Of a stretch of DNA of 11,904 nt, positions 1,419 through 10,730 are shown in pieces. The DNA is from a virus: the UHGV virus genome UHGV-2157276. One strand, given 5' to 3'. Both the position numbers and the translations under genes were made by a program. The notes under the pieces were generated by a model. The model had not been told where the DNA came from. It was given only the letters and a program-made list of their open reading frames with translations, and did no database searches. The stretch's first letter is position 1. Every line of letters begins with the position of its first letter.

Positions 1419-2489
1419 TTATTTGATTTCAATTTTGTCCCACTCCCTGCCTCTGTCATCACGATACTGTGATGCCATGGTGTCCGACTTATGCCCGAGA
1501 AGATGTTGAGCAAATTTATCGCTTATCTGCTTCTCATAGAGTCTTGCAGACAAACTGCGCAACTCGTGAAAGGTTGGCGGATCCCCTTCGAAGGAGAGAC
1601 CTGATGCTTTTCGTGCGCGCATAAAATACCTTGATACTGTGCCGGATGAAAGCGGTTCACGACGAGTAGATGCAATTATGGTTTCTCCGCCAAGAATCTT
1701 TTTGCATTTATCAAGTGTTTCCTTCATTGATATCCCGAGAGCATCAACATGCAATGTTGTTGGGATGGCAATTTTTACGCCTGTTTTGCTTTGCTCGACA
1801 TAAAGATATCCATCTACGATATCAGACCACTTCATTTCGCATAAATCACCAACTCGCTGCCCGGTAACAACAGCCAGTTCCATTGCAAGTCTAAGCCAAC
1901 ATGGTGATGATTCTGCTGCTTGATAAATTTTCAGGTATTCGTCAGCCGTAAGTCTTGATCTCCTTACCTCTGATTTTGCAGCGCGAGTGGCTGCGACCGG
2001 GTTTGTTGTTATATGGCCTTCAGCCATAGCCTCTCGGAATGCATCGCTCAGTGTTGATCTGATTAACTTGGCTGATGCCGCCTTTCCCTCGTCTATGTAT
2101 CCATTGAGCATTGCCGCAATTTCTTTTGTGGTGATGTCTTCAAGTGGAGCATCAGGCAGACCCCTCCTTATTGCTTTAATTTTGCTCATGTAATTTATGA
2201 GTGTCTTCTGCTTGATTCCTCTGCTGGCCAGGATTTTTTCGTAGCGATCAAGCCATGAATGTAACGTAACGGAATTATCACTGTTGATTCTCGCTGTCAG
2301 AGGCTTGTGTTTGTGTCCTGAAAATAACTCAATGTTGGCCTGTATAGCTTCAGTGATTGCGATTCGCCTGTCTCGGCCTAATCCAAACTCTTTACCCGTC
2401 CTTGGGTCCCTGTAGCAGTAATATCCATTGTTTCTTATATAAAGGTTAGGGGGTAAATCCCGGCGCTCATGACTTCGCCTTCTTCCCAT
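1419..2489 (-). CDS. int: Lambda-type integrase (tyrosine recombinase), 356 aa
   Basis: ORF starts MGRRRSHERRDLPPNLYIRNNGYYCYRDPRTGKEF and ends REWDKIEIK, matching lambda Int as I recall it. ATG at 2487-2489; overlaps xis by 23 nt as in lambda. Confidence 0.95.
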   Translation of the reverse strand: MGRRRSHERRDLPPNLYIRNNGYYCYRDPRTGKEFGLGRDRRIAITEAIQANIELFSGHKHKPLTARINSDNSVTLHSWLDRYEKILASRGIKQKTLINYMSKIKAIRRGLPDAPLEDITTKEIAAMLNGYIDEGKAASAKLIRSTLSDAFREAMAEGHITTNPVAATRAAKSEVRRSRLTADEYLKIYQAAESSPCWLRLAMELAVVTGQRVGDLCEMKWSDIVDGYLYVEQSKTGVKIAIPTTLHVDALGISMKETLDKCKKILGGETIIASTRREPLSSGTVSRYFMRARKASGLSFEGDPPTFHELRSLSARLYEKQISDKFAQHLLGHKSDTMASQYRDDRGREWDKIEIK

Positions 2490-2685
2490 TTCTGATCCTC
2501 TTCAAAAGGCTACCTGTTACTGGTCGATTTAAGTCAACCTTTACCGCTGATTCGTGGAACAGATATTCTCTTCCATCCTTAACCGGAGGAGGGAATATCC
2601 TGCATTCGCGCACCCATCGACGAACTGTTTCAAGGCTTCTTGGGCGTCGCTGGCGAGCGTTCCACTCCTGAAGTGTCAAGTACAT
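2467..2685 (-). CDS. xis: Excisionase Xis, 72 aa
   Basis: ORF MYLTLQEWNARQRRPRSLETVRRWVRECRIFPPPVKDGREYLFHESAVKVDLNRP matches lambda Xis; ATG at 2683-2685; 3' end overlaps the int start. Confidence 0.9.
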   Translation of the reverse strand: MYLTLQEWNARQRRPRSLETVRRWVRECRIFPPPVKDGREYLFHESAVKVDLNRPVTGSLLKRIRNGKKAKS

Positions 2686-2712
2686 CGCAAAGTCTCCGCA
2701 ATTACACGCAAG

Positions 2713-2733
2713 AAAAAACCGCCATCAGGCGGC
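2713..2733 (-). terminator. Candidate intrinsic terminator on the leftward transcript just upstream of xis
   Basis: On the minus strand, stem CCGCC / loop TGAT / GGCGG followed by TTTTTTC. The plus strand has no U-tract after the stem. Confidence 0.35.
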
Positions 2734-2844
2734 TTGGTGTTCTTTCAGTTCTTCAATTCGAATATTGGTTATGTCTGCATGTGCTATCTGCGCCCATATC
2801 ATCCAGTGGTCATAGCAGTCATTGATGTTCTCTGCTTCGATATC

Positions 2845-2874
2845 TGGCTGAAAGAGGGGGTTATTAAGGCGTGA
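2845..2874 (+). pseudogene. 3'-terminal remnant (about 10 codons) of a ybcO/nin-region gene whose stop overlaps the rusA start
   Basis: Frame ending [13 protein letters not shown] (stop 2872-2874) overlapping GTG 2871 of rusA resembles the C-terminus of DLP12 YbcO as I recall it. Upstream of about 2845 the frame is antisense xis-flanking DNA with no coherent coding signal. Exact boundary is uncertain. Confidence 0.3.
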
Positions 2875-3233
2875 ATACCTACAGCATCACATTACCCTGG
2901 CCTCCGAGCAATAATCGCTATTACCGCCATAATCGCGGGCGCACACACATCAGCGCAGAAGGGCAGGCATACCGCGATAACGTCACCCGAATCATTAAAA
3001 ACGCAATGCTGGATATCGGCCTGGCTATGCCAGTGAAAATCCGTATTGAGTGCCACATGCCGGATCGCCGTCGCCGTGACCTGGATAATCTGCAAAAAGC
3101 CGCTTTTGACGCACTCACCAAAGCAGGTTTCTGGCTGGATGATGCTCAGGTCGTTGATTACCGCGTTGTGAAGATGCCTGTTACCAAAGGTGGGAGGCTG
3201 GAACTGACCATCACCGAAATGGGGAATGAATGA
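2871..3233 (+). CDS. rusA: RusA-type Holliday junction resolvase, 120 aa
   Basis: GTG start at 2871. Protein [26 protein letters not shown]...[12 protein letters not shown] is recognised as RusA (nin-region resolvase of lambdoid phages / DLP12). Confidence 0.9.
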
Positions 3234-5584: not shown

Positions 5585-5712
5585 GAGTCTCGATATTAGC
5601 TGATAACCCAATACCTGAGTTATTCACTGACTCCGAGTCTGTTACGTTTCTGCTTTTTTGCGATACGTTGTATTCCCTCAATTTACACCCGCTTTGTCTG
5701 CGAGGTGGGGTT

Positions 5713-5928
5713 ATGAAATCCATGGATAAGTTAACAACGGGTGTCGCCTATGGCACCTCAGCAGGTAGTGCCGGTTACTGGTTTTTACAGCTGCTCGATA
5801 AAGTCACGCCCTCACAGTGGGCAGCAATAGGTGTGCTGGGTAGCCTGGTATTTGGCCTGCTGACGTACCTGACAAACCTTTATTTCAAGATTAAAGAAGA
5901 TAAGCGCAAGGCTGCGAGAGGTGAATAA
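5713..5928 (+). CDS. essD: Phage-21-type pinholin with dual-start motif (antiholin/holin), 71 aa
   Basis: ATG at 5713 preceded by [80 protein letters not shown]; two TM segments, Met1-Lys-Ser-Met4 dual start, charged C-terminus. The ORF track start (5668) is upstream with no RBS. Confidence 0.9.
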
Positions 5929-6425
5929 TGCCTCCATCATTACGAAAAGCCGTTGCTGCTGCTATTGGTGGCGGAGCAATTGCTATAGCATCAGTGTTAA
6001 TTACTGGCCCAAGTGGTAACGATGGTCTGGAAGGTGTCAGCTACGTACCATACAAAGATATCGTTGGCGTATGGACTGTATGTCACGGACACACCGGAAA
6101 AGACATCATGCTCGGTAAAACGTATACCAAAGCAGAATGCAAAGCACTCTTGAATAAAGACCTTGCCACTGTCGCCAGACAAATTAACCCGTACATCAAA
6201 GTCGATATACCGGAAACAACGCGCGGCGCTCTTTACTCATTCGTTTACAACGTGGGTGCTGGCAATTTCAGAACATCGACGCTTCTTCGCAAAATAAACC
6301 AGGGCGATATCAAAGGCGCATGTGATCAGCTACGTCGCTGGACATATGCTGGCGGTAAGCAATGGAAAGGTCTCATGACTCGTCGTGAGATTGAGCGTGA
6401 AATCTGTTTGTGGGGTCAGCAATGA
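5928..6425 (+). CDS. rrrD: SAR endolysin (T4-lysozyme-like, phage 21 R-type), 165 aa
   Basis: Start overlaps the holin stop (TAATG). N-terminal Gly/Ala-rich weakly hydrophobic segment [18 protein letters not shown] (signal-anchor-release domain), followed by an E..D..T motif region ([17 protein letters not shown]). Confidence 0.9.
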
Positions 6426-6883
6426 ACAGAGTAACCGCGATTATCTCCGCTCTGGTTATCTGCATCATCGTCTACCTGTCATGGGCTGTTAATCATTACC
6501 GTGATAACGCCATTACCTACAAAGCCCAGCGCGACAAAAATGCCAGAGAACTGAAGCTGGCGAACGCGGCAATTACTGACATGCAGATGCGTCAGCGTGA
6601 TGTTGCTGCGCTCGATGCAAAATACACGAAGGAGTTAGCTGATGCGAAAGCTGAAAATGATGCTCTGCGTGATGATGTTGCCGCTGGTCGTCGTCGGTTG
6701 CACATCAAAGCAGTCTGTCAGTCAGTGCGTGAAGCCACCACCGCCTCCGGCGTGGATAATGCAGCCTCCCCCCGACTGGCAGACACCGCTGAACGGGATT
6801 ATTTCACCCTCAGAGAGAGGCTGATCACTATGCAAAAACAACTGGAAGGAACCCAGAAGTATATTAATGAGCAGTGCAGATAG
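6422..6883 (+). CDS. rzpD: Spanin inner-membrane subunit Rz, 153 aa
   Basis: ATG at 6422 overlaps the endolysin stop (ATGA). N-terminal TM segment [19 protein letters not shown] then coiled-coil-like sequence. From the start of this gene the DNA appears lambda-like. Confidence 0.9.
6642..6824 (+). CDS. rzoD: Spanin outer-membrane lipoprotein Rz1, 60 aa, embedded in the +1 frame of Rz
   Basis: [20 protein letters not shown] lipoprotein signal with lipobox, Pro-rich mature region [16 protein letters not shown]; entirely inside Rz. Confidence 0.85.
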
Positions 6884-6884
6884 A

Positions 6885-6906
6885 GTTGCCCATATCGATG
6901 GGCAAC
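6885..6906. terminator. Hairpin between convergent Rz and bor; possible bidirectional terminator
   Basis: GTTGCCCAT / ATCG / ATGGGCAAC, 9-bp perfect arms, 2 nt after the Rz stop and 9 nt before the bor stop. U-tracts are weak on both strands. Confidence 0.4.
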
Positions 6907-6914
6907 TCATGCAA

Positions 6915-7208
6915 TTATTGTGAGCAATACACACGCGCTTCCAGCGGAGTATAAATGCCTAAAGTAATAAAACCGAGCAATCCATTTACGAATGTTTGCT
7001 GGGTTTCTGTTTTAACAACATTTTCTGCGCCGCCACAAATTTTGGCTGCATCGACAGTTTTCTTCTGCCCAATTCCAGAAACGAAGAAATGATGGGTGAT
7101 GGTTTCCTTTGGTGCTACTGCTGCCGGTTTGTTTTGAACAGTAAACGTCTGTTGAGCACATCCTGTAATAAGCAGGGCCAGCGCAGTAGCGAGTAGCATT
7201 TTTTTCAT
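6915..7208 (-). CDS. bor: Bor outer-membrane lipoprotein, 97 aa
   Basis: MKKMLLATALALLITGC signal with lipobox, then AQQTFTVQNKPAAVAPKETITHHFFVSGIG...; matches lambda Bor from memory. Confidence 0.9.
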   Translation of the reverse strand: MKKMLLATALALLITGCAQQTFTVQNKPAAVAPKETITHHFFVSGIGQKKTVDAAKICGGAENVVKTETQQTFVNGLLGFITLGIYTPLEARVYCSQ

Positions 7209-7498
7209 GGTGTTATTCCCGATGCTTTTTGAAGTTCGCAGAATCGTATGTGTAGAAAATTAAACAAACCCTAAACAATGAGTTGAAATTTCATATTGTT
7301 AATATTTATTAATGTATGTCAGGTGCGATGAATCGTCATTGTATTCCCGGATTAACTATGTCCACAGCCCTGACGGGGAACTTCTCTGCGGGAGTGTCCG
7401 GGAATAATTAAAAACGATGCACACAGGGTTTAGCGCGTACACGTATTGCATTATGCCAACGCCCCGGTGCTGACACGGAAGAAACCGGACGTTATGAT

Positions 7499-7909
7499 TT
7501 AGCGTGGAAAGATTTGTGTAGTGTTCTGAATGCTCTCAGTAAATAGTAATGAATTATCAAAGGTATAGTAATATCTTTTATGTTCATGGATATTTGTAAC
7601 CCATCGGAAAACTCCTGCTTTAGCAAGATTTTCCCTGTATTGCTGAAATGTGATTTCTCTTGATTTCAACCTATCATAGGACGTTTCTATAAGATGCGTG
7701 TTTCTTGAGAATTTAACATTTACAACCTTTTTAAGTCCTTTTATTAACACGGTGTTATCGTTTTCTAACACGATGTGAATATTATCTGTGGCTAGATAGT
7801 AAATATAATGTGAGACGTTGTGACGTTTTAGTTCAGAATAAAACAATTCACAGTTTAAATCTTTTCGCACTTGATCGAATATTTCTTTAAAAATGGCAAC
7901 CTGAGCCAT
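7499..7909 (-). CDS. ybcV: YbcV-like protein (DUF1398 family), function unknown; 136 aa from the best-supported start
   Basis: ORF on minus strand; the ATG at 7907-7909 ([11 protein letters not shown]...) has AAGG 8 nt upstream. In-frame upstream starts at 7951 (ATG) and 8032 (GTG) lack an RBS. AT-rich gene. Confidence 0.7.
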
Positions 7910-8194
7910 TGGTAAAACCTTCCATGTGATACGAGGGCGCGTAGTTTGCATTATCGTTTTTATCGTTTCAATCTGGTCTGACCTCTTTGTGTTTTGTTGA
8001 TGATTTATGTCAAATATTAGGAATGTTTTCACTTAATAGTATTGGTTGCGTAACAAAGTGCGGTCCTGCTGGCATTCTGGAGGGAAATACAACCGACAGA
8101 TGTATGTAAGGCCAACGTGCTCAAATCTTCATACAGAAAGATTTGAAGTAATATTTTAACCGCTAGATGAAGAGCAAGCGCATGGAGCGACAAA

Positions 8195-8401
8195 ATGAAT
8201 AAAGAACAATCTGCTGATGATCCCTCCGTGGATCTGATTCGTGTAAAAAATATGCTTAATAGCACCATTTCTATGAGTTACCCTGATGTTGTAATTGCAT
8301 GTATAGAACATAAGGTGTCTCTGGAAGCATTCAGAGCAATTGAGGCAGCGTTGGTGAAGCACGATAATAATATGAAGGATTATTCCCTGGTGGTTGACTG
8401 A
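8195..8401 (+). CDS. ybcW: YbcW-like small protein, 68 aa, function unknown
   Basis: ATG at 8195 with GGAG 7 nt upstream; [68 protein letters not shown]. Confidence 0.7.
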
Positions 8402-8565
8402 TCACCATAACTGCTAATCATTCAAACTATTTAGCCTGTGACAGAGCCAACACGCAGTCTGTCACTGTCAGGAAAGTGGTAAAACTGCAACTCAATTACT
8501 GCAATGCCCTCGTAATTAAGTGAATTTACAATATCGTCCTGTTCGGAGGGAAGAACGCGGGATGT

Positions 8566-8760
8566 TCATTCTTCATCACTTTTAATTGATGTATATGCTC
8601 TCTTTTCTGACGTTAGTCTCCGACGGCAGGCTTCAATGACCCAGGCTGAGAAATTCCCGGACCCTTTTTGCTCAAGAGCGATGTTAATTTGTTCAATCAT
8701 TTGGTTAGGAAAGCGGATGTTGCGGGTTGTTGTTCTGCGGGTTCTGTTCTTCGTTGACAT
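8566..8760 (-). CDS. ylcI: YlcI-like small protein (64 aa) with predicted ribbon-helix-helix DNA-binding fold
   Basis: MSTKNRTRRTTTRNIRFPNQMIEQINIALEQKGSGNFSAWVIEACRRRL: basic N-terminal tail, beta-strand NIRFP, helix, G-x-N/S turn, second helix. This is the RHH (CopG/Arc/ParD-like) pattern. Confidence 0.7.
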   Translation of the reverse strand: MSTKNRTRRTTTRNIRFPNQMIEQINIALEQKGSGNFSAWVIEACRRRLTSEKRAYTSIKSDEE

Positions 8761-8959
8761 GAGGTTGCCCCGTATTCAGTGTCGCTGATTTGTATTGTCT
8801 GAAGTTGTTTTTACGTTAAGTTGATGCAGATCAATTAATACGATACCTGCGTCATAATTGATTATTTGACGTGGTTTGATGGCGTAGATGCACGTTGTGA
8901 CATGTAGATGATAATTATTATCATTTTGCGGGTCCTTTCCGGCGATCCGACAGGTTACG

Positions 8960-8971
8960 GGGCGGCGACCT
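8960..8971. other. cosN: lambda 12-nt cohesive-end site (GGGCGGCGACCT), flanked by cosQ-like and cosB-like sequence
   Basis: Exact GGGCGGCGACCT preceded by ...GATCCGACAGGTTACG (lambda right end) and followed by TCGCGGGTTTTCGCTATTTATGAAAATTTTCCGG (lambda left end). Confidence 0.85.
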
Positions 8972-9148
8972 CGCGGGTTTTCGCTATTTATGAAAATTTT
9001 CCGGTTTAAGGCGTTTCCGTTCTTCTTCGTCATAACTTAATGTTTTTATTTAAAATACCCTCTGAAAAGAAAGGAAGCGACAGGTGCTGAAAGCGAGCTT
9101 TTTGGCCTCTGTCGTTTCCTTTCTCTGTTTTTGTCCGTGGAATGAACA

Positions 9149-9694
9149 ATGGAAGTCAACAAAAAGCAGCTGGCTGACATTTTCGGTGCGAGTATCCGTA
9201 CCATTCAGAACTGGCAGGAACAGGGAATGCCCGTTCTGCGAGGCGGTGGCAAGGGTAATGAGGTGCTTTATGACTCTGCCGCCGTCATAAAATGGTATGC
9301 CGAAAGGGATGCTGAAATTGAGAACGAAAAGCTGCGCCGGGAGGTTGAAGAACTGCGGCAGGCCAGCGAGGCAGATCTCCAGCCAGGGACTATTGAGTAC
9401 GAACGCCATCGACTTACGCGTGCGCAGGCCGACGCACAGGAGCTGAAAAATGCCAGAGACTCCGCTGAAGTGGTGGAAACCGCATTCTGTACTTTCGTGC
9501 TGTCGCGGATCGCAGGTGAAATTGCCAGTATTCTCGACGGGATCCCCCTGTCGGTGCAGCGGCGTTTTCCGGAACTGGAAAACCGACATGTTGATTTCCT
9601 GAAACGGGATATCATCAAAGCCATGAACAAAGCAGCCGCGCTGGATGAACTGATACCGGGGTTGCTGAGTGAATATATCGAACAGTCAGGTTAA
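9149..9694 (+). CDS. nu1: Terminase small subunit Nu1, 181 aa, full length
   Basis: MEVNKKQLADIFGASIRTIQNWQEQGMPVLRGGGKGNEVLYDSAAVIKWYAERDAEIENEKLRR...; N-terminal winged-HTH. Overlaps the A start by 26 nt as in lambda. Confidence 0.95.
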   Translation: MEVNKKQLADIFGASIRTIQNWQEQGMPVLRGGGKGNEVLYDSAAVIKWYAERDAEIENEKLRREVEELRQASEADLQPGTIEYERHRLTRAQADAQELKNARDSAEVVETAFCTFVLSRIAGEIASILDGIPLSVQRRFPELENRHVDFLKRDIIKAMNKAAALDELIPGLLSEYIEQSG

Positions 9695-10730
9695 CAGGCT
9701 GCGGCATTTTGTCCGCGCCGGGCTTCGCTCACTGTTCAGGCCGGAGCCACAGACCGCCGTTGAATGGGCGGATGCTAATTACTATCTCCCGAAAGAATCC
9801 GCATACCAGGAAGGGCGCTGGGAAACACTGCCCTTTCAGCGGGCCATCATGAATGCGATGGGCAGCGACTACATCCGCGAGGTGAATGTGGTGAAGTCTG
9901 CCCGTGTTGGTTATTCCAAAATGCTGTTGGGTGTTTATGCCTACTTCATAGAGCATAAGCAGCGCAACACACTTATCTGGTTGCCGACGGATGGTGATGC
10001 CGAGAACTTTATGAAAACCCACGTTGAGCCGACCATCCGCGATATTCCGTTGCTGCTGGCGCTGGCTCCGTGGTATGGCAAAAAGCACCGGGATAACACG
10101 CTCACCATGAAGCGTTTTTCCAATGGTCGTGGCTTCTGGTGCCTGGGCGGTAAAGCGGCAAAAAACTACCGTGAAAAGTCGGTGGATGTGGCGGGTTATG
10201 ATGAACTTGCTGCCTTTGATGAGGATATTGAACAGGAAGGCTCTCCGACGTTCCTTGGCGACAAACGTATTGAAGGCTCGGTCTGGCCAAAGTCCATCCG
10301 TGGCTCCACCCCCAAAGTGAGAGGCACCTGCCAGATTGAGCGTGCAGCCAGTGAATCCCCGCATTTTATGCGTTTTCATGTTGCCTGTCCGCACTGCGGG
10401 GAGGAGCAGTACCTTAAATTTGGCGATAAAGAGACGTCGTTTGGCCTCAAATGGACGCCGGATGATCCCTCCAGCGTGTTTTATCTCTGCGAACATAATG
10501 CCTGCGTCATCCGCCAGCAGGAACTGGACTTCACTGATGCCCGTTATATCTGCGAAAAGACCGGGATCTGGACCCGTGATGGCATTCTCTGGTTTTCGTC
10601 ATCCGGTGAAGAGATTGAGCCGCCGGACAGCGTGACCTTTCACATCTGGACGGCGTACAGCCCGTTCACCACCTGGGTGCAGATTGTCAAAGACTGGATG
10701 AAAACGAAAGGGGATACCTTCTGCCCGTAA
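9669..10730 (+). pseudogene. A: Terminase large subunit gpA, N-terminal 350 of about 641 codons, truncated at a deletion junction
   Basis: MNISNSQVNRLRHFVRAGLRSLF...[14 protein letters not shown] then 3 unrelated codons (FCP) and stop. Walker-A-like KSARVGYSK is present; the C-terminal nuclease half is absent. Confidence 0.85.

Follow-up and report, generated by a model that had tools for sequence, protein, structure and literature searches.

The lambda moron genes bor and lom are among the closest described counterparts of the genes considered here; like ybcV, ybcW and ylcI, they are dispensable for plaque formation, low in GC and variable between related phages. The genes ybcV and ybcW have themselves long been known as uncharacterised open reading frames at the right end of lambda, and the feature described below is in this respect an ordinary one. 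Several published studies of regulators have touched this locus in E. coli: PdhR gives a binding peak with a box, and the mRNAs of ybcV and ybcW are about 10-fold lower in a pdhR mutant (PMC7660256); an FNR ChIP-chip peak lies at ybcW (PMC1802558), which is also listed as FNR-activated (PMC2634741); Hha binds the region and induces ybcW 17-fold (PMC2408971); overexpression of T4 MotB raises ybcV and ybcW more than 1000-fold in BL21(DE3), which the authors tied to H-NS repression (PMC7827196); and ybcW and ylcI are listed as a convergent overlapping transcript pair (PMC12288877). The mRNA changes published for K-12 show that transcription of ybcV and ybcW occurs. For ybcV, a paralogue has a solved solution structure, YdfO (PDB 2HH8), a structural-genomics entry that is named 'hypothetical protein' and carries no functional information.

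The right end of a defective lambda-type prophage

The window, by which we mean the whole stretch of 11,904 nucleotides that was analysed (UHGV virus genome UHGV-2157276), is a lambda-type prophage, defective and located beside ybhC at the lambda attachment site. Its landmarks are as follows.

1419-2685: lambda-type integrase and excisionase genes
After int/xis, in window order: rusA, a Q-type antiterminator gene and a porin gene
5668-6883: lysis genes
6410-6883: Rz/Rz1
6915-7208, minus strand: bor lipoprotein gene (Pfam Lambda_Bor, E 1.9e-30), a separate transcription unit and the left neighbour of the locus
7499-7909, minus strand: ybcV (lambdap78), 136 aa from an ATG at 7909, DUF1398 (Pfam PF07166)
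8195-8401, plus strand: ybcW (lambdap79), 68 aa, with a Shine-Dalgarno sequence GGAG at 8184-8187
8566-8760, minus strand: ylcI, YlcI/YnfO family (DUF3950), in a short 64-aa form (Pfam DUF3950, E 1.9e-20; NCBIfam YlcI_YnfO_N)
8960-8971, plus strand: cosN cohesive-end sequence GGGCGGCGACCT, an exact match
9149-9694: small terminase gene
After the small terminase gene: large terminase gene, truncated

The defect of the prophage is visible at 1419-3233, where int and xis abut rusA and the early region between them is missing. The large terminase open reading frame (9669-10730) ends at 353 aa, and in E. coli NCTC9104 the same gene is annotated as a fusion with a tail-protein fragment. This strain also provides the closest chromosomal match to the window (L003, 8300-9487), in which an IS1 in ybcV leaves a shortened DUF1398 reading frame.

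A sequence search showed that positions 7200-8800 are 99.8% identical to positions 46744-48343 of phage lambda (J02459). As judged from this identity to the right end of lambda, the two genes are lambda's lambdap78 and lambdap79 and the counterparts of ybcV and ybcW in the K-12 prophage DLP12. The first-pass annotation, which had been made from the letters alone, had regarded the pair as the best candidate in the window for undescribed biology; it had missed that the DNA is lambda's own right end. Its descriptions of the genes themselves were accurate. The AT-rich DUF1398-type gene on the minus strand is ybcV, with a GC content of 33-35%, and its product matches the entire 119-position profile of DUF1398 with 157.8 bits (gathering cut-off 22; E 1.5e-46). 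The 68-aa gene on the plus strand is ybcW: the protein falls over its entire length (positions 1-68 of 68, E 7.5e-48) into PHROG 657, labelled 'unknown function', and where E. coli genomes have a 100%-identical stretch, the gene there carries the annotation 'ybcW: protein YbcW', with the RefSeq name of the protein. That neither protein has an assigned function was also correctly stated, as YbcW belongs to this PHROG and the sole solved relative of YbcV is the structural-genomics entry.

YbcV matches the YdfO NMR structure with all 136 residues (E 4e-71), and its predicted secondary structure is helix-helix-three strands, twice; a single-sequence structure model was too poor for use. The gene has a dN/dS of 0.16-0.35. 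In the NC_001416 annotation, lambdap78 is a 177-aa reading frame with a GTG start (window 7499-8032), whose Pfam domain begins at residue 49, and the 136-aa ATG start has a good ribosome-binding site. The longer reading frame cannot be the real product, because ylcI fills the additional 5' part in the related locus L006. The labels 'head protein' (PHROG, phrog_413) and 'putative envelope protein' (RefSeq) for lambdap78 are likewise without visible basis, the gene being oriented against the late operon and dispensable.

The gene ybcW keeps its length and frame in all alleles (dN/dS 0.36-0.6), and residues 17-55 of its product are nearly invariant. The AlphaFold2 model is a three-helix bundle (helices 10-21, 25-38 and 43-59; pLDDT 71.7), to which only generic structure matches were obtained, and by sequence count the protein is acidic, with 11 Asp/Glu to 7 Lys/Arg. 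A Pfam search assigned YbcW to no family, and an NCBIfam search gave no meaningful matches for YbcV or YbcW. The structure prediction and remote-homology search that had been proposed for both proteins gave a solved relative for YbcV (2HH8), a generic three-helix bundle for YbcW, and a function for neither. Deep protein searches of 5.8 billion sequences and 1.8 billion representatives found four natural YbcW types, the most distant of which (P0198) is 54% identical and retrieved no relatives of its own when used as query. It is encoded at positions 273-464 of a 26-kb contig (L044, Logan SRR35261337) and is the only clearly diverged relative; its neighbours (UCP030791, DUF7828/Zn_ribbon_11 and a weak REP_ORF2-G2P replication-protein match) point to a different kind of mobile element. 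In a scan of bacterial genomes, genuine YbcW hosts were Escherichia only, and the protein is confined to Escherichia lambdoid phages and prophages. The gene is carried by about 2,010 of 5,426 complete E. coli genomes, 948 at an identity of at least 99% and about 1,030 at 80-90%.

Homology searches of this stretch are swamped by lambda control DNA that contaminates public data. Supposed genomes of Pseudomonas, Streptomyces, Cohnella, Flavobacterium and others (L007-L043) have a ybcW of 100% identity that sits on a contig of either about 3.5 kb or 48 kb, and ENA contigs of about 3.5 kb contribute thousands of frameshifted ybcW copies that pass for separate protein clusters (P0001-P0120, alignment A3). 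Almost all YbcW 'variants' of the deep searches were error-ridden copies of lambda control DNA. A further entry, MW057783.1 ('Campylobacter phage CJLB-4', 48,361 bp and thus near the length of lambda), is 99.8% identical over the full 1,601-nt query, the same as lambda, and by this comparison looks like lambda under another name.

Mosaic cassettes between bor and cos

The first-pass annotation had located the pair between the lysis genes and cos, and the positions of Rz/Rz1 and cosN bear this out, as does the interval from bor to cos the further description as an accessory or moron slot: it is low in GC, variable in gene content and in part transcribed against the late operon. The GC fraction is 0.33-0.43 across 7450-8650, compared with 0.47-0.55 in the lysis and terminase genes. 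Between the lysis and terminase genes of related phages, the three genes occur in five combinations, namely ybcV, ybcW and ylcI together (lambda, DLP12), ybcV with ybcW, ybcW alone, ybcW with ylcI, and a ylcI-ybcV operon without ybcW; therefore, none of the three genes needs another. Signals of the moron type are uneven, with a terminator-like site after ybcV and none after ybcW, no promoter in the spacer at the threshold of the consensus scan, and weak candidates in the weight-matrix (PWM) scan. The terminator-like site, the ylcI relic and the ybcW cassette lie as follows.

7417-7442, minus strand: predicted intrinsic terminator just downstream of ybcV, a 9-pair stem with an 8-nt loop followed by CGTTTTTAAT (consensus match)
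7969-7991, minus strand: relic of the 3' end of a longer ylcI; the homologous bases of L006 encode the end (...QVRPD-stop) of a 77-aa YlcI
7992-8597, plus strand: ybcW cassette, in place of 46 bp of the ylcI-ybcV operon

The genes ylcI and ybcV stand side by side on one strand in L006, and likewise in all rows sampled from the commonest class of related loci. The BLAST alignment of the window to L006 breaks at 7991 and resumes at 8598, and the alignment of the junctions places the ybcW cassette between these positions. On the ybcV side of the break, positions 7969-7986 are homologous to the final codons and the stop of the long ylcI, and on the other side the YlcI of the window is 64 aa long, with a C-terminus unlike that of the 77-aa YlcI of L006. 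The cassette core (8036/8086-8547) recurs in five other contexts among related prophages, as found by BLAST, and in these five independent contexts its end lies at 8547 and its start at 8036-8086.

These alignments are most simply read as the insertion of the ybcW cassette into an operon of ylcI and ybcV. The opposite direction, in which the ylcI-ybcV form arose by deletion, seems less likely; insertion is favoured on grounds of parsimony because the window retains an open-reading-frame relic of ylcI. In the history that we propose, a ybcW cassette of about 600 bp would have entered the two-gene operon that many other prophages have, making ybcV and ybcW neighbours by accident, and the insertion would have removed the 3' end of ylcI, leaving a short relic beside ybcV. 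The right end from bor to cos would then be built of single-gene cassettes that move independently, namely bor, ybcV (DUF1398), ybcW and ylcI. The published PdhR box at 7971-7987 is a piece of this leftover ylcI 3' end (...QVRPD-stop), from a gene that is intact in other prophages.

Two claims of the first-pass annotation are affected. The shared control region that it had assigned to the divergent genes is a composite junction between two mosaic modules, and ybcV and ybcW can hardly be treated as a pair, as each is found without the other. Taken together, we consider it probable that the interval from bor to cos is an accessory right end made of independent cassettes, in which the adjacency of ybcV and ybcW is accidental, ybcW is a late gene and the inverted repeat between the two genes is incidental. 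The two genes are thus best studied as separate cassettes, and the natural partner of ybcV is ylcI.

The inverted repeat upstream of ybcW

The spacer between the two genes measures 285 bp (7910-8194), as had been reported, and the perfect 9-bp inverted repeat that the first-pass annotation had seen about 50 bp upstream of ybcW is also there, with dyad symmetry at 9/9 complementary pairs. Together with the published and predicted sites around it, it is arranged as follows.

7943-7971, minus strand: best candidate sigma-70 promoter for ybcV (TTGAAA-17-CAAACT; PWM 8.4), predicted
7971-7987, inside the ylcI relic: published PdhR box AtcTGGTctgACCtcTT (PMC7660256)
8001-8014: predicted FNR site TGTTGATGATTTATGTCAAATATT, published with its centre at K-12 position 578,914.5, which is window position 8007.5 (PMC1802558)
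8121-8129 and 8138-8146: 9-bp inverted repeat TCAAATCTT / AAGATTTGA, with 8 nt between the arms and 48 nt before the ybcW ATG
8128-8157, plus strand: weak candidate promoter for ybcW (TTCATA, then the TAATATTTT block; PWM 6.0, not distinctive), predicted

The candidate promoter of ybcV abuts the published PdhR box, and its PWM score ranks in the top 18 of the roughly 119,000 window positions scanned. The candidate for ybcW, although weak, is the best that was found for this gene; it is overlapped by the repeat and contains GATTTGAnGTnATATTTT, which is invariant in 8 alleles. A consensus promoter scan found none in the 285-bp spacer. On the bor side, a promoter is annotated in phage HK629 at the position matching window 7338-7364 (minus strand).

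Dinucleotide shuffles of the spacer produce a perfect repeat this long or longer (9 bp or more, loop 0-20 nt) in 2% of cases, and shuffles of the whole 11.9-kb window contain 1.2 such repeats on average, so that one is expected somewhere; the chance test is weak. The window holds three other perfect repeats of this kind, one at the attachment core (1330-1365, spanning GCTTTTTTATA), one inside the porin gene and one as a GC-containing stem between Rz and bor (6883-6908). The spacer between bor and ybcV has inverted repeats of its own, a perfect one of 10 bp (TATTCCCGGA / TCCGGGAATA, 7342-7351 / 7397-7406, 45 nt apart), which overlaps the site where HK629 has its annotated bor promoter, and one of 9 bp (7213-7221 / 7399-7407). 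Since the sequence by itself left the repeat undecided, its conservation was compared between alleles.

Lambda-type allele: 9/9 pairs, spacing 8 nt
K-12-type DLP12 copy, 99.4% identical, left arm TCAAACCTT (strain gw25, ybcW at 579,104): 8/9 pairs, spacing 8 nt
CREC_5, a lambda-type strain: 9/9 pairs, spacing 24 nt
Allele class at about 89% identity: 7/9 pairs, spacing 24 nt
Allele classes at about 83-85% identity: 2-4/9 pairs, spacing 16 nt

The mismatch in DLP12 is one of three substitutions in 301 aligned bases. The loop is a tract of the 8-bp unit CTTTCAYN in one, two or three copies, and it is this variation in copy number that sets the arms 8, 16 or 24 nt apart. Across the alleles, compensatory changes were found in none of the pairs (0 changed on both sides), and pairing showed no excess over shuffled or slid controls. 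Among 79 viral-contig loci with a YbcW 99-100% identical to that of the window (78 of them at 100%), the repeat is perfect in 68 and has 8/9 pairs in 11. Of the approximately 2,010 E. coli genomes that carry ybcW, about 611 contain the 66-nt stretch around the repeat without change and 382 with a single-base difference. Conservation within the cassette is lowest upstream of the gene, where the repeat lies (74-88%); the coding sequence reaches 87-95%. The right arm of the repeat lies partly inside a block that is invariant across alleles.

The repeat is thus degraded or absent in orthologous loci, which the first-pass annotation had itself named as evidence against a control element. From the allele comparison, the repeat is most likely incidental, an allele-specific by-product of the variable repeat tract; no allele but the lambda type has it in perfect form. 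A lineage-specific use in lambda may exist, because the right arm falls partly in the invariant block. As an experimental handle, the repeat is not promising.

An operator is the alternative that fares best, and we consider it unlikely. A dimeric regulator, from the phage (for example YlcI) or from the host, would bind the repeat and control ybcW, ybcV or both; the perfect dyad symmetry that only 2% of spacer shuffles reach, the overlap with the candidate -35 element and spacer of the putative ybcW promoter, and the perfect form in about 611 E. coli genomes are all consistent with this. However, half-sites and spacing are not kept in orthologous control regions: every diverged allele, like the DLP12 copy of the K-12 type, has mismatched arms with no compensating change, and a spacing of 8, 16 or 24 nt puts the half-sites on different faces of the helix. 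To our knowledge, none of the Cra, FNR, NarL or LysR-type sites fits the repeat. The published regulator sites (PdhR, FNR, Hha/H-NS) are at least 100 bp away, those for PdhR and FNR at 7971-8014. YlcI, whose binding to the repeat had been put forward, is a poor candidate for the regulator of ybcW, as ybcW cassettes occur without ylcI. It also matches no DNA-binding family in Pfam, where a search at E up to 10 gave only DUF3950, and a PDB sequence search for a ribbon-helix-helix fold gave noise only; a strand-helix-helix pattern can be read from the YlcI sequence and is a lead at most.

Still less probable is an RNA hairpin in the ybcW leader or in the late transcript that would act as a signal for processing, stability or translation. 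It would be transcribed from the late promoter, and also from an FNR-dependent start near 8049 if such a start exists, and the isolated 34-nt form has a folding energy of -9 kcal/mol in lambda (z -3.3 against shuffles). This value falls to -4.3 kcal/mol in the DLP12 copy, however, the diverged alleles fold differently from lambda, and the hairpin is absent from the best fold of 8100-8200, which is itself not unusual (z -1.2). Neither the leader nor the 146 bp that follow ybcW folded with unusual stability, and an Rfam scan of 6800-9200 (E up to 1) gave two noise matches, neither of them on the repeat. With no covariation between the arms and no described family, the repeat does not behave as a structured RNA element.

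Late orientation of ybcW and comparison with known systems

Of the genes from Rz to cos, ybcW alone shares the orientation of the late operon, both in the window and at each related locus that was inspected. In a CRISPRi (dCas12a) screen of lambda, a block on lambdap79 cut plating about 10,000-fold (EOP about 1e-4), whereas blocks on bor and lambdap78 had no plating effect (PMC10695390). The gene was accordingly scored 'essential', against older genetics that found it dispensable; the authors demonstrated roadblock polarity for the nin genes and did not discuss lambdap79 (PMC10695390). We infer that the late transcript runs through ybcW in the sense direction, and the likeliest explanation of the screen result, by analogy, is a block of this transcript and not a need for the protein, because the effect fits the roadblock polarity of the nin genes. 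In an intact phage, ybcW would be transcribed late together with the lysis and head genes, and it is best viewed as a late gene, whereas bor, ybcV and ylcI, with the opposite orientation, would be candidates for expression from the resting prophage.

What YbcW does can be narrowed to a best guess from its model: it may be a small, acidic, cytoplasmic three-helix protein that binds another protein late in infection. A more specific and rather doubtful idea is that this late-made protein meets bacterial immunity, being sensed as a trigger or blocking a host factor. It comes from a bioRxiv preprint (September 2026) on NADase defence of the DUF4062 ('NIR') type, in which lambdap79 is named six times and the phrase 'expression of lambdap79' occurs, together with the words 'escaper', 'trigger', 'co-express', 'toxic' and 'activator' (10.64898/2026.09.04.749371); the link to immunity is a lead at most. 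If it were true, the perfect repeat found only in lambda could be a lineage-specific tuning element.

An anti-phage function of the pair, which had also been suggested, finds no backing in the PADLOC defence profiles, whose best matches are at noise level (E 0.001 for YbcV against part of a restriction-enzyme model, 0.017 for YbcW, none for YlcI). Least probable of all is that ybcV and ybcW form a two-part system (toxin-antitoxin, superinfection exclusion or anti-phage) with a shared divergent promoter region, for although the two genes adjoin each other in divergent orientation in lambda, in DLP12 and at 42 of 47 sampled viral loci, and although both mRNAs fall about 10-fold in the pdhR mutant (PMC7660256) and rise strongly on T4 MotB overexpression (PMC7827196), each gene occurs without the other, their adjacency would stem from the cassette insertion, the PADLOC matches are to unrelated models and the knock-down of lambdap78 has no plating effect (PMC10695390).

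The genes lambdap78 and lambdap79 are among the last lambda genes without an assigned function and are found in about 2,000 of 5,426 complete E. coli genomes; a real function for them would be worth knowing, and our analysis supplies none. It does show where the locus stands among known systems. Compared with lambda and DLP12, nothing of substance differs: YbcW is 100% identical to that of lambda (tblastn for lambdap79) and YbcV 99.3%, the identity to K-12-derived strains such as MC4100 is 98.9% over 7200-8800, and that to MG1655 is 99.4% over the ybcW stretch. The K-12 DLP12 repeat has the one mismatch in its left arm, and the prophage of the window lies at the lambda attachment site, whereas DLP12 lies at its own K-12 position. 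Compared with the lambda morons, bor runs against late transcription, as do ybcV and ylcI, whereas ybcW runs with the late operon; and for bor and lom, unlike ybcV, ybcW and ylcI, both the class of the product and expression in lysogens are known. A further counterpart is the ynfO-ydfO (ylcI-ybcV) operon of the Qin type, which encodes the same two families, YlcI/YnfO and DUF1398, and in which ybcV and the 82 bp upstream of it are homologous at 82%. In that operon, ylcI and ybcV adjoin on the same strand and ylcI encodes 77 aa, whereas in the window the ybcW cassette lies between them and ylcI encodes 64 aa with another C-terminus.
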